Program-made: the position numbers and the translations under genes
IMG/VR virus record: IMGVR_UViG_3300017700_000931
Span: 128,001 to 192,000 of that record
Reading direction: 5' to 3' (one strand)
DNA length: 64,000 nucleotides
From: a virus
Lineage: Duplodnaviria; Caudoviricetes
The notes under the pieces: model-generated
What the model saw: the letters and a program-made list of their open reading frames with translations, nothing else
What the model was told of the DNA's origin: nothing
The model's database searches: none
Shown: piece by piece, positions 7,741-29,948 of the stretch
Layout: each line of letters opens with the position of its first letter
Numbering within the stretch: the stretch's first letter is position 1

Positions 7741-10700
7741 TTACACGATATAGTCCTTAATCCTAGAATCTTTATTCACATTAAATCCATTTGCATTCAA
7801 TGATTGAACTACATCAGTTATGTATTTGTTCGTTGAATTTTCACTAGGTGGTGCATACGTATACATGAATTGTTCAATAGTCATAGGAACCTTCTTACCA
7901 GCAATATTTCTAACACTTTGTGGCACCCCATATTTATTTTGGAATACTGTATCATTACCATTAGTTTTTGTTGCCGGATATCCACCATTAGACCATTGTA
8001 TGATTTTTTTCTCAACCAAAGCTCTAGTTCCAGTTTCCACCGAACTAAATTTAGCAAATGTTGGGCTCGATGCGGTCTCTAACGTAACATTCGGGTCAAT
8101 ATCTTTAAAATTAGTACCTGCTAGGTTTCCGGGGTTGTTGTTTCTTCTAGGTCTTGCATTCACATCTTTACTACCAAAACCTTCTTTTTGTGCAATAATC
8201 ATGGCTAATTGATGAACCATAGTTCCTTTATTATAACCCAACCCAACCAAAACCTCTGGTAATGTAGATAAATGGCCTACTGAACCAGCATCCGTTGGTC
8301 TAGTTTGTATTGTTTCATTACATACCATGAAACCATTTGCTTCATCGTCAGCAATTCTATCAGGTAAGTTAAATTGTAAATGGAAATGGTGGTGGTGACC
8401 ATCAGATTCTCTAACAATACCATCACTTCTATATTTATCCCTATTTTTATACTCAGTTTTAAAATATTGTTGAAGCACTGGGTCATTGAACCAAATCGCT
8501 TTAAATGGTTTATTCTTTTTCCATGCCGGATTTTTCAACGCTTCGTCTAAAATTAATTCCAACAATTGTTTTGTTGCTTCCCTATCGTATTTAGGATTTA
8601 AAGGTGTTGATGAACCATTTTTTGGGACATAATTACCACCAGAATCTTGTTTGTATTCAGCATAAACTTCAGTACTAGAATTTTCTTTATCAGTCCTAAC
8701 TTGTCTAATATCCGCTTCCAATCCATTTCTATGACCACTAGCGTGTCCCGCTTGTCTACCACCACCTTCTTTTGAAAAGTCATTATAATACAACGTATCA
8801 CCATTGGCTTTATCTTTATTAATGGTATACCATTGTTCACCAATAGATTCTATAAACTTACCGATTTCTGGTAAAGTATAATTCACAATATTACCACTCG
8901 ATAATTTATCAGTACTTTGTACTTTAATACCAATACCATTACTAGCTACAGCATAAGCAATACAACCAGCATATCCGGGCGCATCTTTACCACCTTTACG
9001 TGATGTAGTATTTCCACCACCTCCAGTTGTATTCACACTATCAACTGAATTACTTGATGATACTTCACCCAAATCAACACCATCAAATTCAACTTCGGAT
9101 AATGAACCAATTAAATTCATAAACACCGTAGATTTTTTTATCATAGGTGTTTTAGTTGCTCTAACCCTAACACCTTTGAAATTTGTGCTCATATGGTTAG
9201 GTTTAATCGTGTGCTTAACATGAATAATAGTATAAGCTCCAGCAAACATCGGTACGTTATCCAATTGGAAGTACATGAATGGTTGAATTTGAGCATTCCC
9301 TAATGAATCAATTACAGCACTATAAGACCTAGTTCTCCATACATTAAATAAGTTTTGACCAGCAGCTGATGGGTTATTTGGGCCACCTTTAGATGCTATT
9401 TCATCAATAATTTGTAATGATTCATCGGTTTCTGTAAATTCTTGTTGGTCAAGTTTAAAGTTTTTAAACATACTTTGATTCGAATCACCATAAGCTACCC
9501 TGAATGCAGGTATAATTGTACTACCTGATGTAAAATCTTCCGGCATACCAATATAATCATCCGTTATTTGGAAACCATCATCTTTATGTTTACTTTCAGT
9601 ACCAAGATTCAAATTTTTAGACCTCTCACCAATGTACATACAAATAAATTGTGGACCACTTGCAGTACTTGAAACATTAAATGGTTCTGGTTTAAATGCA
9701 GCTTGTACAGCATCTTCACTATTATAATTTATAAATGTTGGTAGTGGAATAAAATCGAAATTATTATCCGCTAATGTTCTGGCTAAATAATCATACATAC
9801 CAATATTATAATCCTCAATCATTTCGATAACCATGGCTATTGGGTTCACTAAGAATGAATCTCCAATGTCATTATATGCTCTATCGATGAATCTAAATGT
9901 ATCAATTAAATTAGTGCATTCTTCATCGTCAGTGCTATCTGGTGCTGGTGTTCCGCACAGTTCTAATTCACACCTAGAACCTGGTATCCACTTATCATAA
10001 ATTGATTTAATATTCTTGTATAAATTTAACTTAATGTCGTCAGCATCAATAGAATTGAATAACTCACGTTTAATACTTGTTTCCTCATCATCTAGTGTTT
10101 GTTTATCTTCAGTAACCAATCTTTGGTATTCTTCTGAAAACGCCAAAACATAATTAAGTAATTTATCTTGACTAAATCTAAATGGATGTGACGGTGAATC
10201 AACTTCTTGACCATTTTCAGCATTAGCCGCCCAAAGCCTCCAACTAGAATTAGCAACAATTCTCGTATCCAAAAAGAAACTAAATAAATCATTTTGAACA
10301 TTATTATCAGCACTACTATCTCTCATTTCAACAAAAAAGTTGAATGGAGTTCCATATCTTGCTTCCTTAGCAATTAATTTTGCATTAGCCGCTTTCGTAG
10401 CTATTGGTGCAGCAGATGCTGCAACACTAAGATATTGTTTTATTACTTGAGCTGGATGTGAAGTTAAACCTTGTAATAATTGAACTTCTGACCATTTAAT
10501 ATCCGGCGCAATAACAATATAGTTATCTGGTAATGCTGGATTTAATGGACTAGATGCCTCAGTGAATAAATTATTTGCATCATTAACTAATCTCTCACCC
10601 ATGGTTAACCACGCATTTATTCTTTCATCCTCAGTAACATTTGGTTTAAAAATTTCTAATTTATTTGCTAATAATCTAAATTTAGATTCATTACCATTAA

Positions 10701-13700
10701 CACCTTCTGTCCAAGCAAGAAATTCATCAATGAATACTTTTGCGACTGAATCAGGTAATCTTGTTAATGTTCTTTCTAATGGAATATACTTACGTTTTCC
10801 TTCAAATATTAAATTAATTGGACCATTAATTGGGTCAAATAAATCATTCAATGCATCTCTATCTACAACAAATCCCATAATTTCATTTGTTGCAACATTC
10901 GGTAATAAATACTCAGCCTTTGTTGGTGGTATTTGTCCTTCAGCATTTGGTATTAAAGAATACCCAGAATCGCTCACCCATTTTAGTGGGTCAGTTGCAG
11001 AACGGTACCTCCAAAGTAATGCACCAACAAATAATATCCACGGATATGGTGTTTTAATAAATCCAGCCCTTTGTGTAAAGAATAATTGGATTGTTTTTGT
11101 GAATAAACCAGTACCTCTTGATGCTTGACCAGTTCCTGAATCCACTTCCTCATCTGGACCTGCAACCTCATCGAAAATACTAAATAAACCTTCCCATGAA
11201 TTACCATATAGACCCCACCAGCCATCAATATCATAAGATAGTCCATCAAATGGAATGGAGTGTAAAAATAAAAATGCTTTGGCCTTATCATCTAATTGTT
11301 GATAATATAAATCACTACCAAATATTGGGAAGATGTGAGTTGTATTTCTAGTAAGTGCATCTTCAGTACCAGTTGCACTAGATTGATTGTATAATTCAAA
11401 ACCTAAATAAGTACAAGCAACATTCCTAACACCATCACGATAATCACTTAAAACACGCTTAGTGCTACCCCAATATTCATCCTTTCTATGTTCTTCAAAT
11501 AAATTTCTTTGTTGACTAACACCAAATGCAACGCCATTCATATTTTGATAAACACCATTCACTTTTTTAATATCGTAAATACTAGGTTGTTCACTTAAAT
11601 CAGCATTAATACTTCTTGCGGCACCAAAGCAAGGTCTATCACTACTTGTGTTAGAATAAAATAATAATTCTACTGGCGCAACTTCACTATTACCAATATA
11701 TTTTCCTTCTGGCATTTTAGCATAGAAAAATTCGTGGGTTTTCCATGCACCACCAAACATACTACTGTATAATGAAAAATTAGTAATTAAATCCGAAATA
11801 TTCGTTAAATCAATTACATTATCTTTAACTGGAATAGTTTCCAATATTGCTTCAGAATAATCAGGAAATCTACCATTTGGTGGATTATAATCTTGGTTTT
11901 TAATGATTCTAACTGTCGTTGCACCATCATCCGGTTTAGCTTTACCAGCTGTTGTATTACCACCTAAATAACTACCAAAGAAAACATATCCATTATCTCT
12001 AAGTGCTATTCTATCGGAATTATTGGCATAATTTGCACTATCTAATGTAGCTGGTAATCCATCCTTGGTGATTAATTTATTACCTGTGAAAAATGTCTTA
12101 TCATTTTCAGCACTTGAAAGAGGTAAATACCAAACAACTTGTGAACCAAATATTGGTGAACTAACAATTGCATTATCATTAGCTGGTGATAATGCTGGAA
12201 TGTATTTGTAATCAACTAAGGTTGTTTGGCCATAAGTATTTTCTAATTCAGGACCAGTAAGACCAACTAAACCTAAAGGTAGACTAACCGCAATTATCGC
12301 AATATCAAATAAGATATTACTAACACTGGCTTGCTCAAAGGTATAACTACCAAATATTTTATTTTTATTGAAAAAACTAGCATTATTAATCCATTTATCA
12401 TAACCAGTACTAGTTGTTGTATAACCCGCTTTAGTTAGGATATCATTTGCCATAGAATTGGCATCACCGCCATAATTGTAAGCAATATTATGTCGTATTG
12501 CAACAGTATCAATATTATTAAAAGCATTATTTGCTTCTAATTTAGCGATTGCTTTAACCTCATCCAATGTGAAACCTTCAGTCTCACTTAATCCGGCGTG
12601 ATATGAATAACCTAAAGCTATTGTTGCTCTAAGTAACATATGTCTAATTATTTCATCAGGGTCATTTGAATTTTTAAATGCTGCCCATGGATTAACAAAT
12701 CCGGTCATAATTGTTGTATCAAACGGATTGATTGGGAACCAGAATTCTTCACCGTATTCTAACGCTTCTAATAATTCATTATCCTTTTTCTTAGCGTTTA
12801 TAAGACCTTCTAATAATTGTTCAATGAAATCTACCTCCGGCATGCTTGGAGCTTTGGTACCTATCCATTTATCTTCATATGCACCGAAACCACCACTACT
12901 TTTATCATAATTCTTTTCTTTGTAATCTGGGAATGGTAAAACTTCATTTATGTCACCAGTATCATCACTATCAGTTCCACCGTCTTTTAATTCATAAACC
13001 CTATCAGTCGTTAAATTTCTAAATTGACTTTTCCTTACCTTATCACTAATATTTTGTTGTACTTCTCCAGCAACTTCTTTTATACATTTCATGAAGATGT
13101 GTACGTGCTCAGTTAAAAGTCTAACCATATTTTTTATGGTTGGGCTGAATTTAATTGTAACCGGATTTCCATTTTCATCTAATGTTGTAACTTGAAAAAT
13201 AGTTTCTATTTTATCAACCAATTCATTGGATAATAATTCTTTTGTTTTTTTTGAGTAATTAGTCAATCTAACACCAACATCATTCAATTCATCTAAAGCA
13301 TATCTCAAATCAATATAACCTAATTCAGTGCTATCAGCAATTTTACTACCCAATAATTCAATATCGAATCTAAAATCTTCATAATATTCTGCACTTTTTT
13401 CTGATATAGAACGAACTGTTCTAAGTTGGTAAATAACTGGATTGCCGAATGAATCTTCAGTGGTAAATGTTTTACCATTATTACTAATATATTGACCAAT
13501 TTCAATTGCTGAAGTAAAATCAATTCTTCTAATTTCATAATCACTGTTTTTACCAGCTTCTATTCTATATGAATCAGAATTGACCGAAAATTCAGGATAT
13601 TCTGTGTTGAATGCTATTACCTTATCAACAAATAATTTGTTGAAATCTTGCGTGATAGCACGAGTAATATTATCTAAATTTATTTTATTAGTAGGTTTTC

Positions 13701-14610
13701 TAAACATCACAAATCCACCTTTATAAAGTAGATTCATCGATTCATTAGTGGTTACATCTCTTTCATTACCGATGTTTCTCAAGAATTTTCTAATATCTTC
13801 TTTAAGTGCATCAACTTTAATGATTCCGGCTTCTGATTTTGCTAATTGTTGAATTCTTTCATCACTGTGTTTCAACTTTTCAATTTCAGTATTCAATGTT
13901 TTAATCTTTTCGTTAAATTCATTCATACCAAAAAAAGCTTGCGGTGGGTCATAACTAGCAAATTTTACCTTAGCAGCAGCAATTTTATCCCTAGCGATAT
14001 CTGTTTCAGCAATACCTCTAAGATAACCCATCAACATATCAGCTAAGAACGCATAAGTATACCCGATGAAATCACATTGAATTTCAAAATTACCAGTAGT
14101 ATCATTTAATTTACCACTAAATTTGGTTAAATGTAAACAATATTTAACTGCTTTACCATAATAGCCTTTAATTGTTAATTCAAATATTGGGTACGGCATA
14201 TTAAAAAATACACTATAAGGTGATTCATTACCCATTTCAAATAACTTACCTCTAATATCAGTAAAATCAATTGTAACCATGGGTGCGTATGAGGTGTTAA
14301 AATCAATATCAATTGATGTAATACCTAGTGTTTCTAAATCAGGATTTGCTTGATTAAATTTAGTGTTTATTTCAGTATAATGTGTGGTAAGTTCATTCCT
14401 ACCATCACCATCAGTATCCGTTCCTTTAAGAAATTTAATTGGTATTTTAGTACCACCCTTTTGAAAACCAGTAACTTTTTCTGAATCATCACGATTAATT
14501 GCTGACCTATCTTTTTTTGTTGTAACTAATTCAACAAAAATACTTAAATCTTCGTGATTTATTACATCTTGACCCTTTGGATTTGGGTCAACGAGTTTCA
14601 TTCTACCCAT
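7741..14610 (-). CDS. Giant baseplate hub / tail-associated lysin (gp27/gpD-like hub plus MepA-like peptidase and lysozyme-like C-terminal domains)
   Basis: gpD-like LGNAQIQPFMYFQL..GAYTIIHVKHTI; LAS peptidase HRNGLEAD (H-x6-D) and HHFH; C-terminal NNNPGNL...YAPPSEN; tail-module position. Confidence 0.8.
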   Translation of the reverse strand: MGRMKLVDPNPKGQDVINHEDLSIFVELVTTKKDRSAINRDDSEKVTGFQKGGTKIPIKFLKGTDTDGDGRNELTTHYTEINTKFNQANPDLETLGITSIDIDFNTSYAPMVTIDFTDIRGKLFEMGNESPYSVFFNMPYPIFELTIKGYYGKAVKYCLHLTKFSGKLNDTTGNFEIQCDFIGYTYAFLADMLMGYLRGIAETDIARDKIAAAKVKFASYDPPQAFFGMNEFNEKIKTLNTEIEKLKHSDERIQQLAKSEAGIIKVDALKEDIRKFLRNIGNERDVTTNESMNLLYKGGFVMFRKPTNKINLDNITRAITQDFNKLFVDKVIAFNTEYPEFSVNSDSYRIEAGKNSDYEIRRIDFTSAIEIGQYISNNGKTFTTEDSFGNPVIYQLRTVRSISEKSAEYYEDFRFDIELLGSKIADSTELGYIDLRYALDELNDVGVRLTNYSKKTKELLSNELVDKIETIFQVTTLDENGNPVTIKFSPTIKNMVRLLTEHVHIFMKCIKEVAGEVQQNISDKVRKSQFRNLTTDRVYELKDGGTDSDDTGDINEVLPFPDYKEKNYDKSSGGFGAYEDKWIGTKAPSMPEVDFIEQLLEGLINAKKKDNELLEALEYGEEFWFPINPFDTTIMTGFVNPWAAFKNSNDPDEIIRHMLLRATIALGYSYHAGLSETEGFTLDEVKAIAKLEANNAFNNIDTVAIRHNIAYNYGGDANSMANDILTKAGYTTTSTGYDKWINNASFFNKNKIFGSYTFEQASVSNILFDIAIIAVSLPLGLVGLTGPELENTYGQTTLVDYKYIPALSPANDNAIVSSPIFGSQVVWYLPLSSAENDKTFFTGNKLITKDGLPATLDSANYANNSDRIALRDNGYVFFGSYLGGNTTAGKAKPDDGATTVRIIKNQDYNPPNGRFPDYSEAILETIPVKDNVIDLTNISDLITNFSLYSSMFGGAWKTHEFFYAKMPEGKYIGNSEVAPVELLFYSNTSSDRPCFGAARSINADLSEQPSIYDIKKVNGVYQNMNGVAFGVSQQRNLFEEHRKDEYWGSTKRVLSDYRDGVRNVACTYLGFELYNQSSATGTEDALTRNTTHIFPIFGSDLYYQQLDDKAKAFLFLHSIPFDGLSYDIDGWWGLYGNSWEGLFSIFDEVAGPDEEVDSGTGQASRGTGLFTKTIQLFFTQRAGFIKTPYPWILFVGALLWRYRSATDPLKWVSDSGYSLIPNAEGQIPPTKAEYLLPNVATNEIMGFVVDRDALNDLFDPINGPINLIFEGKRKYIPLERTLTRLPDSVAKVFIDEFLAWTEGVNGNESKFRLLANKLEIFKPNVTEDERINAWLTMGERLVNDANNLFTEASSPLNPALPDNYIVIAPDIKWSEVQLLQGLTSHPAQVIKQYLSVAASAAPIATKAANAKLIAKEARYGTPFNFFVEMRDSSADNNVQNDLFSFFLDTRIVANSSWRLWAANAENGQEVDSPSHPFRFSQDKLLNYVLAFSEEYQRLVTEDKQTLDDEETSIKRELFNSIDADDIKLNLYKNIKSIYDKWIPGSRCELELCGTPAPDSTDDEECTNLIDTFRFIDRAYNDIGDSFLVNPIAMVIEMIEDYNIGMYDYLARTLADNNFDFIPLPTFINYNSEDAVQAAFKPEPFNVSSTASGPQFICMYIGERSKNLNLGTESKHKDDGFQITDDYIGMPEDFTSGSTIIPAFRVAYGDSNQSMFKNFKLDQQEFTETDESLQIIDEIASKGGPNNPSAAGQNLFNVWRTRSYSAVIDSLGNAQIQPFMYFQLDNVPMFAGAYTIIHVKHTIKPNHMSTNFKGVRVRATKTPMIKKSTVFMNLIGSLSEVEFDGVDLGEVSSSNSVDSVNTTGGGGNTTSRKGGKDAPGYAGCIAYAVASNGIGIKVQSTDKLSSGNIVNYTLPEIGKFIESIGEQWYTINKDKANGDTLYYNDFSKEGGGRQAGHASGHRNGLEADIRQVRTDKENSSTEVYAEYKQDSGGNYVPKNGSSTPLNPKYDREATKQLLELILDEALKNPAWKKNKPFKAIWFNDPVLQQYFKTEYKNRDKYRSDGIVRESDGHHHHFHLQFNLPDRIADDEANGFMVCNETIQTRPTDAGSVGHLSTLPEVLVGLGYNKGTMVHQLAMIIAQKEGFGSKDVNARPRRNNNPGNLAGTNFKDIDPNVTLETASSPTFAKFSSVETGTRALVEKKIIQWSNGGYPATKTNGNDTVFQNKYGVPQSVRNIAGKKVPMTIEQFMYTYAPPSENSTNKYITDVVQSLNANGFNVNKDSRIKDYIV

Positions 14611-14625
14611 AATATTTTTTTATAA

Positions 14626-14946
14626 CTATTCTCCGTAGAGTAATATATGTCTTTCAACTTCTTTATTATACCTATCAATCGCATCTTTAAATGGAAATGG
14701 TATCCTTATAACTTCACCGTTTGGAATCTCCCATTCCAAACCACCAAATTTTGGATTCGCTACCATTATTAACCAACCATGATATGGGTTACCATAATAC
14801 TCTTGTGACAATTTGTCAAGTCTTGTGTGACCTAATTTATAAACAACTGATTTATCTTCACCACTTGTGTTAATTATGATACCCGGTATCGGTCTGATAC
14901 TCCCATTCTCTTTAAACCTTTGATATCTATCGTAATATTCAGCCAT
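14626..14946 (-). CDS. LysM-like baseplate wedge protein (T4 gp53 / P2 gpX-like)
   Basis: TRLDKLSQEYYGNPYHGWLIMVANP...IPNGEVIRIP. Confidence 0.8.
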   Translation of the reverse strand: MAEYYDRYQRFKENGSIRPIPGIIINTSGEDKSVVYKLGHTRLDKLSQEYYGNPYHGWLIMVANPKFGGLEWEIPNGEVIRIPFPFKDAIDRYNKEVERHILLYGE

Positions 14947-14960
14947 TATTATTTAATTTT

Positions 14961-17900
14961 TTAAACATTTAATTTTGGTGCACTATCACCCCATCGTTCC
15001 CATCCGGTATTAATTATTTCAATATTTGTTTTACACATTGGTGTTCCACCAACATAAATTGATAAATGATATTTACCTTCGGTTAATCCTACAACACCTT
15101 GTCCATTAACTAATCCTTCCTGACCAATTGTTATCCCACCATTTATTAATGAAAATTGTCTCAGTTTCGTATCTGCAACAACAAGTTCTTCATAATGGAA
15201 TGGTGTTGTTATACCATCAAGTGATATTTTTACACCAGCATTAAAATATGCATTAACTTCATCATCACTTGGGATGAATTGACCATCAGAATCAAGGAAA
15301 TTAACACTTGCTGCTTCAATTAATACAGTCCAAGATTGTTTATCCTTATTAGCATGTGGCCTAGTCAATACATGTTTGAAACCTGTAATTGTTAATTCTT
15401 GTGTATTAGAACCTTCTTCATCAGTTTGAACAGATGAAGTTTCAATTTCTGACCTCACCTCTTGATTAACTTCATCTTGAGGTAAATTACTAATTCCAGA
15501 TGATAAACCATAAATATTATTAAATCCTTCAGGTGGATTATCAAAATTATTTGGGTTAGCACCATTTACTAAAACGTAGTCTCTAGGATTACCATTCGCA
15601 TCAACATCAGTAGGTCCAGCTTTTTTGATATGGTCAGCTCTTTCATCGTAAATTTCAGTATTCGCAAAGAAATTAAATGATACAGCGTTTTGTAATCTAT
15701 TTATTGGTCCTTGTAAACTAGAACCACCAATAAATTTGAATGACATATCAACAGTACATATCATTGGTTGAACACCAACACCTTCTGGATTTAAATCCCA
15801 AACTAATGGGTCAAAAGAAAATGATATGTTATCAATAATAATTTTACTATGGTAGAAATCACCCACACGTAAAATACATACTGGTGGTGTTCCAAAAGCT
15901 AAATTAGTTGGTACACCTTCCCTGATTGTTGGTCCTTGTCTTGTACATTGTTGAAGGAAATTTAATCTAGAGTTAAATCCTTCTGGTGTAATAGAATGGA
16001 ATGCTGGGTGAAAATATTTCACTTTCTCTTTTATTGAAGAATAAATAAATTTATCCTCTTGTTCAATCTTTTGAAAATAACTACATTCATTAAAATATCT
16101 TTTTCTGATATCTAATGATAAATCAGCAACAGGTTGTTGAACAATTGGTGGTGCCGCAGCAGCTAATTTTTCATCTAATATTGGGTCGTAAGTAAATGAT
16201 ACTTGTGTGAATCTAGATTGTTTTTTACAAATAGTATCAACCTCACCAATAACACTACCATCAGGATTTATAACTTTAGCCGGACAACCAGTATTACCTT
16301 CACCACGAATAAATTCAAATCTACTATCAACAATAGGGTCACCAGCCAATTTCAAAAGTGTTCTTAACGTATTAGCAACATGTTCGGCTCTATCATTTGA
16401 TAATCTTTGATTCGCATCAGCAGCTTCAGTTTGACCATCTTGACTAGCCCAACCACTTAAACTAACTCTACATGCTGGACATTTTTTGATTAAATATTCA
16501 ACTAGTGTTGGGAGATATGCGTTACCTTGCCACCCATCAAATGTTTGACCATCTAAAATTATTTTTTGACCTTGTGGACAATTACCACTAAGACAACTAT
16601 TCAAACCAAAATCTGTATTATCAGGATATGGATGAATACTACCATTAATGGCTGTTGTAATATAACCTTCATCAGCCATAATAGAGCCCACACCAACACC
16701 GTCACCATTTTCATAGTTAGTAGGAACAGATGTTACATCATTAGGGAAATAAACCTTAAATGGGTCTGGTGGAATTTGTGGTTGTACTTCAACTTCTGGA
16801 ACTTTAATTGCAGTAGATACCTCAATAACATCCTTTTCGACTTGAGTCATCTTACTACCAACAATAGAATCTAAATCCATACAACCAGCAGCTATACTAG
16901 CAAATACTTCATCACTAGCACCTGCATCTCTCAAATCATTAATGTATGTTGCATGGTCAATAATCATTTGCCATTGTAATGTTCCGGTTCTCTCTGTATT
17001 ATTGTAAGTATACATAGGTTCTCCTCTACCAATGAAATTAGTTGTATCCCAATTCACACTAGAATTATCAGTGAAATTCATACCATATGGTGGAAACCAC
17101 ATAATCCTACCACGAGTACCAGTCATTGGGTCGCCCGGACCTTTTTCACAATTAGGTAAAAATGGTTGAAATCCATTCCATGCTAAGTTTTCGATTGAAA
17201 ACATGAAACGTTTTATTTTTGTTTCTTTGAAATCATCCGCAAAATCACCATCACCAACAATTGGTGCTATTCTAACAAATCCGTTATCATCTAATACAGA
17301 ATTGTGAATATTATTCCTTATTGTTGAGCCAGCATTACTATGTAATCCAGAATTTTTTTGTAAATCAAGTACTTGACTATATCTATCAAATGTTGTCCAC
17401 GTTCTACAGAAAATATCTTCACTAGTTAAATTTTCTGCACTAGCATTTGGTTGTAAGGCTGTTTGGGTAAGCACACCACTACCTTTTGAAATATGATTGA
17501 AATAAACTGAATTTTGAATTTCACTTTTAACTTGACCACCAACAGCTCTACCAGAGGTTAGTGTTCTCATTTTGTTGGTTTTAAATAATTGTTGTGTTTT
17601 ATACAATAAACTTTTTGGTTCAGTGAATTTATCAGTAGGGAATATTCTTTTACCAGGTTTGTTGTTATTATTATCACCCCAAATATATTTGTTTACAAAA
17701 CTTCCATCTTCCCCGTATTCAAACACATTGTCATTAGGTCCAATACCAAAATCATTTGCAAATGACCCATCAATTTCTGATGTTATCTTACCATAAGTGT
17801 TTTCAAATTGAGTTTCATTAATAGCGTTTACTGCATCAATAGTGAAAGCCGGATTAGGAATGCCATTTATAAATGGCTCATTAGCACTATTCACAACTGG

Positions 17901-18968
17901 TGGGGCCGTATTCAATAAATCTAGGATTCTACCTCTTTCAGCTGATTCAAAAGCATATAATTGACCATTAGTTCCTGTATCACCCTTAACTACGCTAAGT
18001 TTTTTTCTACTATCATCAATCGTTGGTTTATATTTGTTCTGATTAAGATTATTAATCATAGCAAGCACTTGACCAACACCAGTGTTAGCCACCATAGAAT
18101 TAACTCGACTGATATTATCAATCGGGTTTTCTGATGAGAAAATTGATGATGATTGGTCTAACAAACTCACTGGTGCTTGAAAACCTAAAACCTTAGCACC
18201 AAAGTCTATTACGTTACTTAGTTGTCCCTTCGTTACTGTAATACTGTAGTTCGGAACATAAATATTATTACCTTGTAGAAGACTAAGTGGATTCAAATTT
18301 ATACTTCCAAGAGTTTCTTGAATTAAACCAAAGGCCGCATTATAACCAAAATGTTTTACTAATTGAGCATCAGCAATACTACCTAATTGAGAATCATTTC
18401 CAACAACACCAAGTTGTTGTGATACACCACCTAGGTTTACTGCATTCAACACAGTATCAAGGGTTCTTTGAGCTAAAGATTCTTTGAAATTATATACTCC
18501 ACCAGCAGTCGTAGACACCGATACAGTATTCAAATTTACCTTGTATAATAAATCCGCATCGAAATATTTGTTTTTCAACATTTGTTTTCTAGCGTCATCA
18601 GAATCAACATTAAATGGTGATGTAGGATTTTCCGAACCAATATTTTGTTGATAACTTAGTGGTTGTGTGCCCACTGGAAGGTTACCAATATTAATAATTG
18701 TATTTGTATTAATATCAATAACTTCATTACCATCCATTGATTTATATGGATTGGATAGAAGGTTTAAATCCCTATAAAATTGACCGTTAGTTACAATATT
18801 TTGAGATGCCTGAACAGCAACCGGAAGAGTTTCAATCTGTGCTTGTTGTCCAAGACCTACAGCCAATGAAGCTAAACCACTATTAGTTATTGAATCTGAT
18901 AAAATCAGATTCTTATTCAATAACCAATCTCTTAAATTTGGTGAAATATCGTTTATTCCATTTGGCAT
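14961..18968 (-). CDS. Baseplate / tube-initiator protein with an inserted OmpA-like domain
   Basis: Tube-fold segments RIMWFPPYG..WDTTNFIGRGEPMYTYNNTER and PPVCILRVGDFYHSKIII; OmpA-like VSLSGWAS..NQRLSNDRA. Confidence 0.7.
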   Translation of the reverse strand: MPNGINDISPNLRDWLLNKNLILSDSITNSGLASLAVGLGQQAQIETLPVAVQASQNIVTNGQFYRDLNLLSNPYKSMDGNEVIDINTNTIINIGNLPVGTQPLSYQQNIGSENPTSPFNVDSDDARKQMLKNKYFDADLLYKVNLNTVSVSTTAGGVYNFKESLAQRTLDTVLNAVNLGGVSQQLGVVGNDSQLGSIADAQLVKHFGYNAAFGLIQETLGSINLNPLSLLQGNNIYVPNYSITVTKGQLSNVIDFGAKVLGFQAPVSLLDQSSSIFSSENPIDNISRVNSMVANTGVGQVLAMINNLNQNKYKPTIDDSRKKLSVVKGDTGTNGQLYAFESAERGRILDLLNTAPPVVNSANEPFINGIPNPAFTIDAVNAINETQFENTYGKITSEIDGSFANDFGIGPNDNVFEYGEDGSFVNKYIWGDNNNNKPGKRIFPTDKFTEPKSLLYKTQQLFKTNKMRTLTSGRAVGGQVKSEIQNSVYFNHISKGSGVLTQTALQPNASAENLTSEDIFCRTWTTFDRYSQVLDLQKNSGLHSNAGSTIRNNIHNSVLDDNGFVRIAPIVGDGDFADDFKETKIKRFMFSIENLAWNGFQPFLPNCEKGPGDPMTGTRGRIMWFPPYGMNFTDNSSVNWDTTNFIGRGEPMYTYNNTERTGTLQWQMIIDHATYINDLRDAGASDEVFASIAAGCMDLDSIVGSKMTQVEKDVIEVSTAIKVPEVEVQPQIPPDPFKVYFPNDVTSVPTNYENGDGVGVGSIMADEGYITTAINGSIHPYPDNTDFGLNSCLSGNCPQGQKIILDGQTFDGWQGNAYLPTLVEYLIKKCPACRVSLSGWASQDGQTEAADANQRLSNDRAEHVANTLRTLLKLAGDPIVDSRFEFIRGEGNTGCPAKVINPDGSVIGEVDTICKKQSRFTQVSFTYDPILDEKLAAAAPPIVQQPVADLSLDIRKRYFNECSYFQKIEQEDKFIYSSIKEKVKYFHPAFHSITPEGFNSRLNFLQQCTRQGPTIREGVPTNLAFGTPPVCILRVGDFYHSKIIIDNISFSFDPLVWDLNPEGVGVQPMICTVDMSFKFIGGSSLQGPINRLQNAVSFNFFANTEIYDERADHIKKAGPTDVDANGNPRDYVLVNGANPNNFDNPPEGFNNIYGLSSGISNLPQDEVNQEVRSEIETSSVQTDEEGSNTQELTITGFKHVLTRPHANKDKQSWTVLIEAASVNFLDSDGQFIPSDDEVNAYFNAGVKISLDGITTPFHYEELVVADTKLRQFSLINGGITIGQEGLVNGQGVVGLTEGKYHLSIYVGGTPMCKTNIEIINTGWERWGDSAPKLNV

Positions 18969-25931: not shown

Positions 25932-27029
25932 TTATTGGTCAAAAACACAATCCATAGGGGTTGTGGAACCATCATCCTTTTTAATTTTAAGTTTTTTACA
26001 CTTAGTTTTAGCACCACTAGTGTAGTGCATACGAACAGTTTTATTAGTTGAAGTAGTTATCTTAACCAATTCATATTGGTGCCTTTCAATAACTTGTGGT
26101 GCCGTTTCACCACCCTTAACTTCCTCATCGAATACAACAACTAATCTGATTGTAACATATCGATATGGTGCAGTTTTAATTCTAGCTTCAACTCTATCAC
26201 CCTTAGACATTCCGGGCTCAAATAAATTAGGCCCACTATTTGGTTTAGTAGTCGTACTGAATTTTGCGTCAGTTAAATCAAGTGTCATCATGAAATTTTC
26301 AACACTTTGTGCTCTTAATAATGATAATTGTTCGTTACCCATTTTTATTGGTTCAGTATCTGTTGATGATTCAATGAATACACCAATGATTTTACCACCA
26401 GCAAGCTTTATATCATTCACAACTATAGAAATAGAGTCCATAGTTGAAACACTCAAATCAAATGTACCTGTGTTGAAAAAATTATCTGACGACCATTTAA
26501 AATCAATGGTATCTTGTACGATAACGCTTGAACCTTTTGGAAGAATTGTGTCTCTCGTTATGATTACATCACTAATTGCATATCCTTGGCTTAATCTAGT
26601 TCTAAGGACTGATGGACTAGTTGTTCTTTGAGTATCGGTAGTATATGAAACCTTATCCTTTTTTTTATTTTTAGCATCGAGATAAGCAATCGTAGATTTA
26701 ATTCTTTCAGCATTTTGTTGAATTAACTCTCCGGCATTGGGCATCTTATTATCTATCCTATCAATTAATTTATTTAATTGGGTGGTATCAGATAATACAT
26801 TATTAACTTTTTGAATAATTTCTTGATTTGTTAAAGAGTTTTGTGCGATTGCTTTATTTTGACCAGTTAATGTCACACCAGCTAACATTAATAAACTCAA
26901 GGCAATTTCTTTAAAACCCTCTTCAATAACACCTTCAGTCAAAAGTTCATTTAATGCTGCTTCATCTTCATTTATTTGATGAGCAATTATCTTCAGTTGT
27001 TTTTCAGTTATGATTAATTTTTTTGCCAT
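25932..27029 (-). CDS. Membrane/secreted OmpA-like (peptidoglycan-binding) domain protein
   Basis: Hydrophobic IALSLLMLAGVTLTG; FNTGTFDL...IESSTD..NEQLSLLRAQSV...RYVTI OmpA_C pattern. Confidence 0.65.
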   Translation of the reverse strand: MAKKLIITEKQLKIIAHQINEDEAALNELLTEGVIEEGFKEIALSLLMLAGVTLTGQNKAIAQNSLTNQEIIQKVNNVLSDTTQLNKLIDRIDNKMPNAGELIQQNAERIKSTIAYLDAKNKKKDKVSYTTDTQRTTSPSVLRTRLSQGYAISDVIITRDTILPKGSSVIVQDTIDFKWSSDNFFNTGTFDLSVSTMDSISIVVNDIKLAGGKIIGVFIESSTDTEPIKMGNEQLSLLRAQSVENFMMTLDLTDAKFSTTTKPNSGPNLFEPGMSKGDRVEARIKTAPYRYVTIRLVVVFDEEVKGGETAPQVIERHQYELVKITTSTNKTVRMHYTSGAKTKCKKLKIKKDDGSTTPMDCVFDQ

Positions 27030-27107: not shown

Positions 27108-29948
27108 TTAGATGTCATCAAAACTTGCACCTGTGTTCATAATGTTGAACTCTACGCAAATGAATTCTAATGCTCTTGTTGGTTTAATAAAGATTCTACC
27201 ACAAAGTTCATTTCTATCAATTGCTTCTGGGTCATCATCCAACACAACTCTAAAGTCTGTTAAACCTCTCTCACTTCTGATATTATCTAGAATTGGATTA
27301 ACTAATGACAAGAATTGGTTTCTAACAATATCATCATTTTGTTCAAATAACAATCTAATTGATACAGCAGAAATTAATTTTCTTGCTTGTAATAACAATC
27401 TTCTAACGTTAATTCTATCCAAAGCAGATTCCTTAACTTGAAGAGTTTTGTTACCCCAGATTTTAATACCCTCAGATGCAAATGTAGCAATTGGATTAAT
27501 CCTACCATCATAAAGTGTATCTCTATCTTGAAGAGTTAATTTAACCCTAGATTTAACAGCATTAACGTCACCTCTTTGAACACCAGCAGCAGCAAACCAA
27601 GGGAATGCAATATTATCAGTCAATGCAATGTTTCTAACAACGTCTCTTGTAGGTGGTAACCAAACAAGAACATTATTTTCAGCATCTTGAACTTGAATCC
27701 AAGGCCAGAATGTTGCAGTATAGTTACTATCAAAAGCTCCGTCAATATTATCAACAGCATCTTCTGCGGTCATCACACCACCACCAGTATCTGTATCTGG
27801 AAGTGTTGCGATATAAATTGAATCCGCTCTTTCTGTTTCAATCATTTCGATTGCTTCTTCAATTAAGTTTGTGTGGTCAATCATATCGATACCCGGAGTA
27901 GCAAACACATTAATGTTAATTGCTTCAGGATTAGCGAATGTTCTAAGACCTTCAAAGTATGCGTAGTAATCAGAACTAATTCCGTTTTCACCGTTAGTAA
28001 GTGCTCTGTTTGAGAACACACCATTAGTAAGACCTAAAGCACCTTTTGAACCATTGATTGTGTAAGCATCTTGGTTTGTTCTTCTAGTTCTGTAGATATC
28101 CCAACCATCGAAACCACCATAAGGTGCAAATGTAAATTTACGTGCATAAACTTTTTCATAATCAGTTCCAGCAAGGTCAAAATCATTTTTGAATTCAGCA
28201 TTACCTGTTTCAAATTCAAATATTGGAGAATAAGTACCACCAGTAAGGTTGATTACTATTTCAACATTGTCAATTGTAACAGCACTAGCTTCGATATCCA
28301 TGTGGAAACCTTTAGTTAATCCAGTCCAAATATCTACTGTCGTACTATCTGGTTTACCTTTATAGTCAAAGAAATCTTGGTCGATACCAACGATATCAGA
28401 AAGACCCAAATAAGCTTTTCTTTTTTTCTCAAAAATACCATAAGTTTTTTTGTAATTGATAGTTGGATTTTCAACTGATGTGTTACCGTTTTCAGAATAA
28501 TCTCTGATTGGGAAACCAACGAAACCAGCTGGGAATGCATCACTACCATCACTATCTTCATCAATTTCAACTAACACATAATTTGAGTTAGAAACATATT
28601 GACCATCTAATGTACCAATTCTTCTACCAACAAATCTATCTGATGTTGGGTCCATTGTACATCTTGAGAATTTCTCAAGAATAACCGGATTAGCATCTGT
28701 ATCAGCATAACTTCTGATTTCAACATCAAATAATTTATCATCTGGTTTGATGTTTGTGATTGAAATTTTAAATTCTCTATTTGCAGTATTACCATCAGAG
28801 ATTGTCCAAAGTCTGAATAATCTCAAAACTTTATTACCTCTAACCTCAGATACAACATAAGGTGTAACCGCTGGTTGATATTCTACTTTATAATCATCGA
28901 AGGTATTTCCATACTCAATCAATGTCATATTAATACCTCTGACTTTTTCTTCTGTGATAAAATCTTCAAGCATGTTTTCATAAATCTCTTCGACATATAA
29001 TGCAGTAGTGTTATCTTGTGCAGATGTACCCAATACTCTAGTAATATAGTTTTTCTTAGTTCTATCGAATGATAATGAATAATTAAATGCGCCTTGGAAA
29101 TAAGATGTACCAGTAATGCTGAATGCACCTAATGGTGATTCTTGTGCTGTTTGACCAGTACTTGCAATACCAATTGTACCACCACTACAATCAAAGAATA
29201 ATGTTTCAGTACCATCATATCTACCTCTTGACCTGATTAATGCAACAATTTTGTTTTCAACGTCTGAGTAACAAGTACCAGAATAATGAATTGTAGTACC
29301 AGTTGTACTACCTGTTACGTTACCACCGGATGTACCAGCTGAATTAACATAAACAGTAAATGATGCACCAGTAAATGCACATCCAGTTTCAGAAATTTTA
29401 TCAAATACTGGATTATAAGTCGCAGTATCACCAGTTGAAGCTGTTGTTAAGAAATTAAGGTTTACAAATCCATCATCATATAATTGTTGAATCAATGAGT
29501 CAGTTATCACAACATTTGTAAGTGTTCCAGCAGTTGTTGCGGTATAAGTGATGAATGGGTTTTTATTAACCGTACCAGTAGTTGCACCACTTGTTGTTGG
29601 GTCTAATGCAGCATCAAGTGTGATACCCCACGCTTGGCCAGCATCATAACCAGAGAATCCTAGGATTCTTGATACGAATAATTGATTTGATTGTGACAAA
29701 TATGATTTAGCAATGTATGGTAATTCATACATTGGAGCCCCAGTATCTTTAACTTTTTTTGCATTCAATCCACCGAAAAATGCTTTAAACTCGTCGTAGT
29801 TACTAACGAAAATTGGTTGGAATGCTGGACCTTTTGTAGTCTCACCAACCAAACCTAAAGTTGTTACACCAACGTTACGAGTTACGAATGATAAATCCCT
29901 CTCTGAGGTATAAACACCGGGACTAACGAATACTCTTTCTGAAGCCAT
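27108..29948 (-). CDS. Tail sheath protein (T4 gp18-like)
   Basis: VSPGVYTSERD N-terminus; PWFAAAGVQRG, GIKIWGNKTL, RINVRRL, FIKPTRALEFI C-terminus. Confidence 0.96.
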   Translation of the reverse strand: MASERVFVSPGVYTSERDLSFVTRNVGVTTLGLVGETTKGPAFQPIFVSNYDEFKAFFGGLNAKKVKDTGAPMYELPYIAKSYLSQSNQLFVSRILGFSGYDAGQAWGITLDAALDPTTSGATTGTVNKNPFITYTATTAGTLTNVVITDSLIQQLYDDGFVNLNFLTTASTGDTATYNPVFDKISETGCAFTGASFTVYVNSAGTSGGNVTGSTTGTTIHYSGTCYSDVENKIVALIRSRGRYDGTETLFFDCSGGTIGIASTGQTAQESPLGAFSITGTSYFQGAFNYSLSFDRTKKNYITRVLGTSAQDNTTALYVEEIYENMLEDFITEEKVRGINMTLIEYGNTFDDYKVEYQPAVTPYVVSEVRGNKVLRLFRLWTISDGNTANREFKISITNIKPDDKLFDVEIRSYADTDANPVILEKFSRCTMDPTSDRFVGRRIGTLDGQYVSNSNYVLVEIDEDSDGSDAFPAGFVGFPIRDYSENGNTSVENPTINYKKTYGIFEKKRKAYLGLSDIVGIDQDFFDYKGKPDSTTVDIWTGLTKGFHMDIEASAVTIDNVEIVINLTGGTYSPIFEFETGNAEFKNDFDLAGTDYEKVYARKFTFAPYGGFDGWDIYRTRRTNQDAYTINGSKGALGLTNGVFSNRALTNGENGISSDYYAYFEGLRTFANPEAININVFATPGIDMIDHTNLIEEAIEMIETERADSIYIATLPDTDTGGGVMTAEDAVDNIDGAFDSNYTATFWPWIQVQDAENNVLVWLPPTRDVVRNIALTDNIAFPWFAAAGVQRGDVNAVKSRVKLTLQDRDTLYDGRINPIATFASEGIKIWGNKTLQVKESALDRINVRRLLLQARKLISAVSIRLLFEQNDDIVRNQFLSLVNPILDNIRSERGLTDFRVVLDDDPEAIDRNELCGRIFIKPTRALEFICVEFNIMNTGASFDDI

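Follow-up and report, generated by a model that had tools for sequence, protein, structure and literature searches.

A predicted OmpA-fold domain inserted in the tube-type core of a baseplate protein of uncultured jumbo myophages

Tube initiators of the Pvc7, Afp7 and Alg7 type, and in T4 the proteins gp48/gp54 and gp53, combine a tube-type barrel, which starts the tube on the hub, with a small α/β domain of a known peptidoglycan-binding fold. In Pvc7, Afp7 and Alg7 this domain is LysM-like and contacts wedge and sheath-initiator proteins, and LysM-like domains are also present in T4 gp53, in the pyocin glue protein (PMC12546770) and in gp16 of A-1(L) (PMC10966104). The present analysis concerns P0001, a baseplate protein of 1335 amino acids (aa) from an uncultured, T4-like jumbo myophage of 362 kb, which is predicted to share the tube-type barrel and to carry a different accessory fold at a different site. 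Its gene was found in a stretch of 64,000 nucleotides (positions 128,001 to 192,000 of the IMG/VR virus record IMGVR_UViG_3300017700_000931), hereafter the window, to which the coordinates below refer.

As in the Pvc7/Afp7/Alg7 type, the P0001 gene lies in the tail/baseplate hub module, the location that characterizes genes of tube initiators. The accessory domain of P0001 is predicted to have an OmpA_C fold and to lie inside the barrel, whereas that of Pvc7, Afp7 and Alg7 is a LysM domain at the C-terminus. In addition, P0001 is 4-6 times larger, has an N-terminal region of 580 aa and is encoded next to a separate LysM-like protein. A C-terminal LysM-like domain was not found on P0001, the LysM-like motif being carried by that separate protein of 106 aa, and the Pfam LysM model has no match in P0001 or in the whole phage genome. 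A further comparison is offered by the 'evolved' Dit proteins of siphophages, which have Gram-positive hosts and non-contractile tails; in these tail-tip ring proteins, carbohydrate-binding modules (CBM folds) are inserted in the galectin domain, and not an OmpA fold in a contractile-tail protein. Full-text literature searches found no phage tube initiator or baseplate described as having an OmpA-fold domain. Tube initiators with an accessory domain of a wall-binding fold (LysM-like) are a known kind, and what is new in P0001 is the accessory fold, its internal position, the size of the protein and the coexistence with a separate LysM-like protein.

Predicted folds of P0001

The regions and motifs of P0001, with the evidence for each in brackets, are as follows.

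14961-18968, minus strand: gene of P0001, a 1335-aa tube-initiator-like baseplate protein with a predicted nested OmpA-fold domain (open reading frame and family homologs)
17244-18968, minus strand: conserved N-terminal region, aa 1-575 (conservation across the family, many invariant residues)
16869-17216, minus strand: predicted tube-type fold, first half, aa 585-700 (motifs FSIENLAW, GRIMWFPPY and IGRGEP; model strands 590-594, 621-638 and 658-670)
16179-16766, minus strand: predicted OmpA-fold domain, aa 735-930 (AlphaFold2 confidence >90, Foldseek, VIA and profile-to-PDB matches)
16524-16736, minus strand: nested β-rich subdomain of ~70 aa, aa 745-815, in the loop after β1 of the OmpA fold (DSSP strands at model residues 187-238, confidence 85-95)
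16470-16481, minus strand: CxxC, aa 830-833, just before β2 of the OmpA domain (kept in 76/82 relatives)
16443-16454, minus strand: GWAS, aa 839-842, counterpart of GHTD, with Ser842 at the Asp position (profile alignment to 5wtp)
16386-16412, minus strand: NQRLSNDRA, aa 853-861, with Asn853 and Arg860 as counterparts of the peptidoglycan-contacting Asn and Arg (profile alignment, triad of PMC7192894)
15639-16106, minus strand: predicted tube-type fold, second half, aa 955-1110 (motifs TPEGFNSR, CILRVGDFYH and NPEGVGVQPM; model strands 1030-1054 and 1069-1080)
14964-15638, minus strand: C-terminal region of variable sequence, aa 1111-1335 (sparsely occupied and weakly conserved in the family alignment)

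A reading of this DNA from its letters alone (the sequence-only reading) had proposed that an OmpA_C-like segment with several cysteines, at 16190-16762, splits the two halves of a tube fold. The motifs that it quoted are all present, namely VYFPND (aa 739-744), SLSGWASQDG (836-845), NQRLSNDRA (853-861) and RFTQVSF (919-925), and the segment contains six cysteines (792, 797, 830, 833, 895 and 914), the first two of which are held by the nested subdomain. The proposed range denotes aa 736-927 and is sound in that respect, except that its ends lie 1-2 nt off the codon boundaries, so that a literal translation is in the wrong frame. The CxxC at 830/833 and two further cysteines in the β3-β4 loop of the OmpA domain form a candidate disulfide or metal site.

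The single sequence of P0001 gives only a faint OmpA signal. Pfam OmpA scores 16.7 bits on P0001 alone (cut-off 27.2, E 0.0094) and 21.1 bits, also below the cut-off, in a six-frame search of the genome; the best match of a phmmer search of the PDB is Francisella FopA1 (6u83) at an insignificant E of 0.45. The relatives are more informative, because many homologs have a precomputed PF00691 match, and the equivalent segment of a distant relative (L026) scores 30.7 bits, above the cut-off. A profile of 82 homologs matches 33 PDB sequences, nearly all of them proteins with OmpA-like domains and the best again 6u83 (E 4e-4). An AlphaFold2 (AF2) model of aa 575-1115, built on an alignment of 82 members, has a predicted local distance difference test score (pLDDT) of >90 over aa ~735-930, and the modelled elements follow one another in the order expected for an OmpA-like domain (β1, nested subdomain, α1, β2, long α2, β3, β4). 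Among the matches listed by Foldseek against the PDB, all are OmpA-like (PorE, MotB, Pal, YfiB, TagL and OmpA), mostly with probability 1.0. VIA, which is independent of Foldseek, aligns 117/120 residues of 3td3_A (A. baumannii OmpA) at a Z of 10.8 and a root-mean-square deviation of 2.7 Å, and it finds fourteen more OmpA-like chains at Z >=8. A protein-atlas look-up of the domain returned only weak leads, namely hypothetical proteins of Bacteroidota with scores <=0.90. Taken together, the OmpA_C fold of aa 735-930 is established as far as prediction allows, and the segment proposed in the sequence-only reading indeed corresponds to a domain of this kind.

The regions flanking this domain are predicted to form together a tail-tube-type β-barrel of the tube-initiator or Dit kind. 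VIA aligns more than 20 tube-fold chains, taken from different baseplate and tail entries, over model residues 8-508, including both halves and skipping the insert, with Z values of 5.9-9.0. Among these chains are one of 158 residues from the P1 tail-baseplate (Z 9.0), Pvc7 of PlPVC1 (9qgl_7A, 8.2) and the tube initiator gp18 of A-1(L) (8kea_P, 7.6), which is aligned through its barrel domain, as well as chains from phiCD508, diffocin, the Streptomyces contractile injection system (CIS), phi812, AlgoCIS, pyocin R2, Mu, Milano, Pa193 and Pam3. Two Dit proteins match as well, one from p2 (2wzp_P, Z 6.7) and one from 80alpha, and matches in BFVD include proteins named 'CIS tube protein N-terminal domain'. 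The wide structure search lists 50 entries, none of them from T4 (gp48/gp54), to whose proteins P0001 may nonetheless be related. Both halves are among the most conserved blocks of the family alignment. Since the two flanks jointly resemble tube initiators as well as tube and Dit proteins, the claim that the insert splits two tube-fold halves is borne out at the level of the model, in which a complete OmpA_C-fold domain is inserted in the barrel core, in a helical stretch between two strand-rich halves.

The tube-fold assignment comes from predicted structure and gene context only, because all sequence routes failed. There is no match of Pfam or PHROG to the whole of P0001 or to aa 575-1115, of the P0001 family to the tube protein of the same phage by hhalign, or of the whole protein or its best-conserved block to 50,697 GenBank phage records by tblastn. 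The pLDDT of the core is only 70-85, and single tube-fold Z values are moderate and lie in the range (6-9) in which unrelated matches also occur. The assignment is nevertheless well supported, because it is consistent over more than 20 independent baseplate and tail structures and with the gene position. The same evidence bears on whether the OmpA likeness might be chance or over-reading, so that the segment would be merely a linker between two unrelated conserved regions. The sub-threshold Pfam score, the single-sequence PDB search and the modest tube-fold Z values would allow this explanation; it is nonetheless extremely improbable in view of a confident model that covers a solved OmpA-like domain almost completely, dozens of OmpA-like matches with almost nothing else beside them, relatives that pass the Pfam cut-off, a motif order that fits the family, and a split alignment that recurs in all these tail structures.

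We infer a hexameric ring stoichiometry for P0001, together with its orientation. The N-terminal region has no sequence match in Pfam, PHROG or the PDB, and its modelling by AF2 (aa 1-584) gave a poor result, with a mean pLDDT of 57.5, which was left out of the fold searches. These N-terminal ~580 aa may fold only inside the assembled baseplate.

The pocket and the family record

In the complex of PorE with a muropeptide, Asp576, Asn584 and Arg591 hydrogen-bond the ligand, Asp576 contacting the amine of diaminopimelate (DAP); these residues belong to the motifs GHTD, N..LS and LS..RA and are conserved in OmpA, Pal and PomB (PMC7192894). Asp271 and Arg286 are counterparts in A. baumannii OmpA (AbOmpA). 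The P0001 insert shares the motif order and the Asn and Arg with canonical OmpA_C domains (OmpA 3td3/3td5, Pal, MotB/PomB, PorE 6top, TagL 5m38 and the TssL extension 6aeo). Asn853 is kept in 79/82 and Arg860 in 81/82 aligned members, and both are found in ~80% or more across wider relatives. The sequence-only reading had also noted that the canonical Asp is replaced, and this is correct, because the family motif 'GyaS' aligns with 'GHTD' of 5wtp in the profile alignment, the local GWAS being a form of a family-wide G-Y/F/S/W-A-S. As the triad is incomplete, the domain has the OmpA_C fold and yet falls outside the canonical DAP-binding subgroup. The same GYAS variant occurs in a cellular OmpA-like domain, that of FopA1, for which wall binding is assumed rather than demonstrated (PMC9342783).

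Besides the Ser, the P0001 family differs from canonical domains in a loop from G-x-A-S to Asn that is 3 residues longer, in the 70-aa subdomain (or a WD40 propeller, see below) after β1 and in the CxxC before β2. The insert is moreover part of a virion protein, whereas the canonical domains are periplasmic anchors of cellular machines. Other invariant residues are N743 and D744 at the end of β1, K916 and R919 at the start of β4, and, in the nested subdomain, Y752/E753, D783 and G788-L789-N790. From the topology, N743, D744, N790, K916 and R919 would cluster around the canonical pocket, and where this pocket lies with respect to the ring can likewise be proposed from topology only. The invariant positions of the OmpA domain are those that line the peptidoglycan site in solved complexes, at the ends of β1 and β2 and the starts of the long helix and β4.

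A phmmer search over 1.84 billion representatives retrieves 1,672 clusters (50% identity) at E <=0.001. All of these clusters come from metagenomes or uncultured viruses, on contigs of up to 380 kb; the homologs of P0001 number >1000, and the source labels of family members read only 'hypothetical', 'OmpA-like' or 'WD40'. One partial member, P0183, has an NCBI label of a Promethearchaeota metagenome-assembled genome and is most likely on a phage contig that was binned with an archaeal genome.

The OmpA segment is kept in 118/120 of the best homologs, and the gap between the two core halves measures 180-650 aa in 321/327 members. The remaining six proteins (P0217, P0249, P0256, P0272, P0309 and P0369) have no OmpA domain and only 67-119 aa between the halves. 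In a tree of the core halves they occupy three or four separate places, all within one clade, the other members of which have minimal and partly degenerate OmpA domains, the degenerate ones lacking the Arg. Two loci recovered with P0249 as the query, on viral and metagenome contigs, both have the insert. In distant relatives without a match of the hidden Markov model, the G-F/S-A-S, LSxxR and RRV motifs are still recognizable, or the Pfam cut-off is passed or approached. Both major clades share the site of the insert and its Ser-type motif, which marks the insert as ancestral and the short forms as losses. The OmpA domain is thus a nearly universal and ancestral insert that was lost at least three times in one clade, and it behaves as a separate module that can be dispensed with. 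Neither this history nor the LysM-like gene immediately downstream had been noticed in the sequence-only reading.

In the longest forms, the loop after β1 of the OmpA domain holds a WD40 propeller of ~400 aa, where P0001 has its 70-aa subdomain. These proteins (P0063, P0074, P0077, P0080, P0089 and others, ~1720-1810 aa) show nesting at three levels, with a propeller in an OmpA domain in a tube fold.

Neighbouring genes and genome context

The virus record from which the window was taken is 362,532 bp long, has direct terminal repeats and a low G+C content, and encodes T4-like replication genes (gp32, a 5′-3′ exonuclease and a weak RecA/UvsX-like match). The contractile-tail module is on the minus strand, in the order sheath, tube, gp26-like protein, two open reading frames (409 and 859 aa), P0001, the LysM-like 106-aa protein and a 2289-aa hub with hydrolases; the same order is found in a related locus (L085). 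The neighbours of P0001 are as follows.

14626-14946, minus strand: P0379, a 106-aa protein, probably a LysM-like baseplate glue of the gp53/gpX type (phrog_7145 'baseplate wedge subunit', E 3.6e-6)
7741-14610, minus strand: 2289-aa protein with a hub-like position and, towards its C-terminal end, two wall-hydrolase domains
27108-29948, minus strand: sheath, 946 aa
24540-25028, minus strand: tube protein, 162 aa
23293-24414, minus strand: gp26-type protein, 373 aa (PF12322)
25932-27029, minus strand: another protein with an OmpA domain, 365 aa, encoded between sheath and tube (PF00691 32.2 bits, above the cut-off)

The LysM-like sequence pattern of P0379 and its sub-threshold match to Pfam Phage_gp53 (E 0.044) suggest that it is probably a glue protein of the gp53/gpX type and a partner of P0001. 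A P0379-like protein is encoded directly downstream of the P0001 gene in 71/71 related loci with enough downstream DNA, at a spacing of -46 to +55 nt. The idea that the OmpA domain stands in for a missing LysM glue was dropped once this protein had been found. The sequence-only reading had placed hub hydrolases next to P0001, in agreement with the 2289-aa protein, which contains Peptidase_M74 (aa 1882-2084; Pfam score 26.3 bits, cut-off 25) and, after it, a domain resembling endolysins and transglycosylases (aa 2142-2270; phrog_873 endolysin, E 7e-10).

The 373-aa neighbour was at first taken for gp48/gp54 from its PF12322 match, an identification that was abandoned because PF12322 is gp26-type. 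The phage genome encodes three OmpA-fold proteins. The 365-aa protein is not a recent paralog of the P0001 insert (BLASTP E 0.98), and a canonical OmpA domain (PF00691, 82.8 bits) is present in a 637-aa open frame (L082, G000:C1:19915-20202) of the same genome, outside the window.

Possible roles of the insert

The reading favoured here, tentatively and as a nearly even proposition, is that the OmpA insert is a remodelled pocket that binds an envelope or cell-wall component beside the hub hydrolases. The sequence-only reading had proposed that the tail tip grips the cell wall while the hub hydrolases cut it, with binding perhaps altered by the loss of the Asp. A binding pocket is preferred here because a glue role seems filled, because the loop on the pocket side seems exposed and because two of the three contact residues are constrained. 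The glue role is probably already filled, since the LysM-like protein is always encoded next door, and the pocket face is likely to be solvent-exposed, since the adjoining loop takes lineage-specific insertions up to the size of the 400-aa WD40 propeller. In such a model, the pocket would bind a wall component of the host, which may be the stem peptide of murein, engaged in a non-canonical way, or a closely associated ligand of the envelope; binding would keep the tip of the tube and the hub in place at the wall, which the M74 endopeptidase and lysozyme-like domains of the hub might then open.

Several points weigh against wall binding, and some of them speak at the same time for a structural adaptor, in which wall binding has been lost and the domain only links the ring of tube initiators with proteins of the wedge, the sheath initiator or the hub. 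The Asp position is occupied by Ser in all 82 aligned members (Ser842 in P0001), and a motif search of 186 distinct relatives finds Ser there in 137/150 motif instances and Asp never, so that the canonical Asp is gone family-wide. A precedent is domain 3 of Treponema pallidum Tp0624, which has an OmpA fold, keeps the Arg and has lost the acidic residue (Asp to Ala), as P0001 has (Asp to Ser). It did not bind DAP by isothermal titration calorimetry or by soaking, although its pocket differs further in a displaced loop and a bulkier floor (PMC5104382). The degenerate, Arg-less domains of one clade and the repeated losses of the insert indicate that some lineages dispense with the domain. A ring of six 150-kDa chains may have too much bulk to follow the tube into the periplasm, and the invariant residues on the surface might just as well belong to an interface with another protein. 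The accessory domains of known tube initiators are protein-protein glue (PMC12546770), the LysM-like ones touching wedge and sheath-initiator proteins and stabilizing the baseplate-trunk interface (PMC12546770; PMC10966104). Because tube initiators elsewhere carry such a glue domain, a purely structural role is a serious rival and quite possible. It has to accommodate a probable LysM-like glue that is already encoded directly downstream in every one of the 71 loci, a 400-aa WD40 insertion beside the pocket that is hard to fit in a buried interface, and a triad Asn and Arg that are near-invariant in most of the family.

The ligand might instead be something other than murein, such as a host protein of the outer membrane or the periplasm, a glycan of the envelope or a component of the phage itself (tape measure or ejected protein). 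The non-canonical chemistry of the pocket, with Ser for Asp, would suit this explanation, and so would the conserved nested subdomain that flanks the pocket with invariant residues of its own (Y752, E753, D783, N790) and the WD40 protein-binding platform that relatives put at the same spot. It is nevertheless unlikely, because there is no pointer to a specific alternative ligand, the kept Asn and Arg suit a carboxylate-bearing ligand such as the stem peptide, and the neighbouring genes are all wall-directed.

The current interpretation of the LysM-like domains found in tube initiators is that they act as structural glue. With P0001 and its relatives, a second and unrelated wall-binding fold is predicted for this protein class, at another site and in ~1,700 protein clusters of environmental jumbo phages. 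The broader proposal, which is rather doubtful at present, is that a large clade of uncultured jumbo myophages uses a remodelled OmpA-type pocket in the first tube ring as a dedicated step of wall anchoring or recognition during penetration, beside a two-hydrolase hub, and that some lineages add a WD40 propeller. Such a step would amount to a periplasmic 'second receptor' mechanism, which to our knowledge has been demonstrated for no phage. The lineages without the insert or without the Arg provide natural controls. If the domain is only glue, it would be a clean example of how assembly can recruit a fold that elsewhere binds ligands. If instead the wall is bound by the pocket, contractile tails would be able to anchor the tube tip to murein, which would add a step to the model of penetration and provide a new compact wall-binding module.

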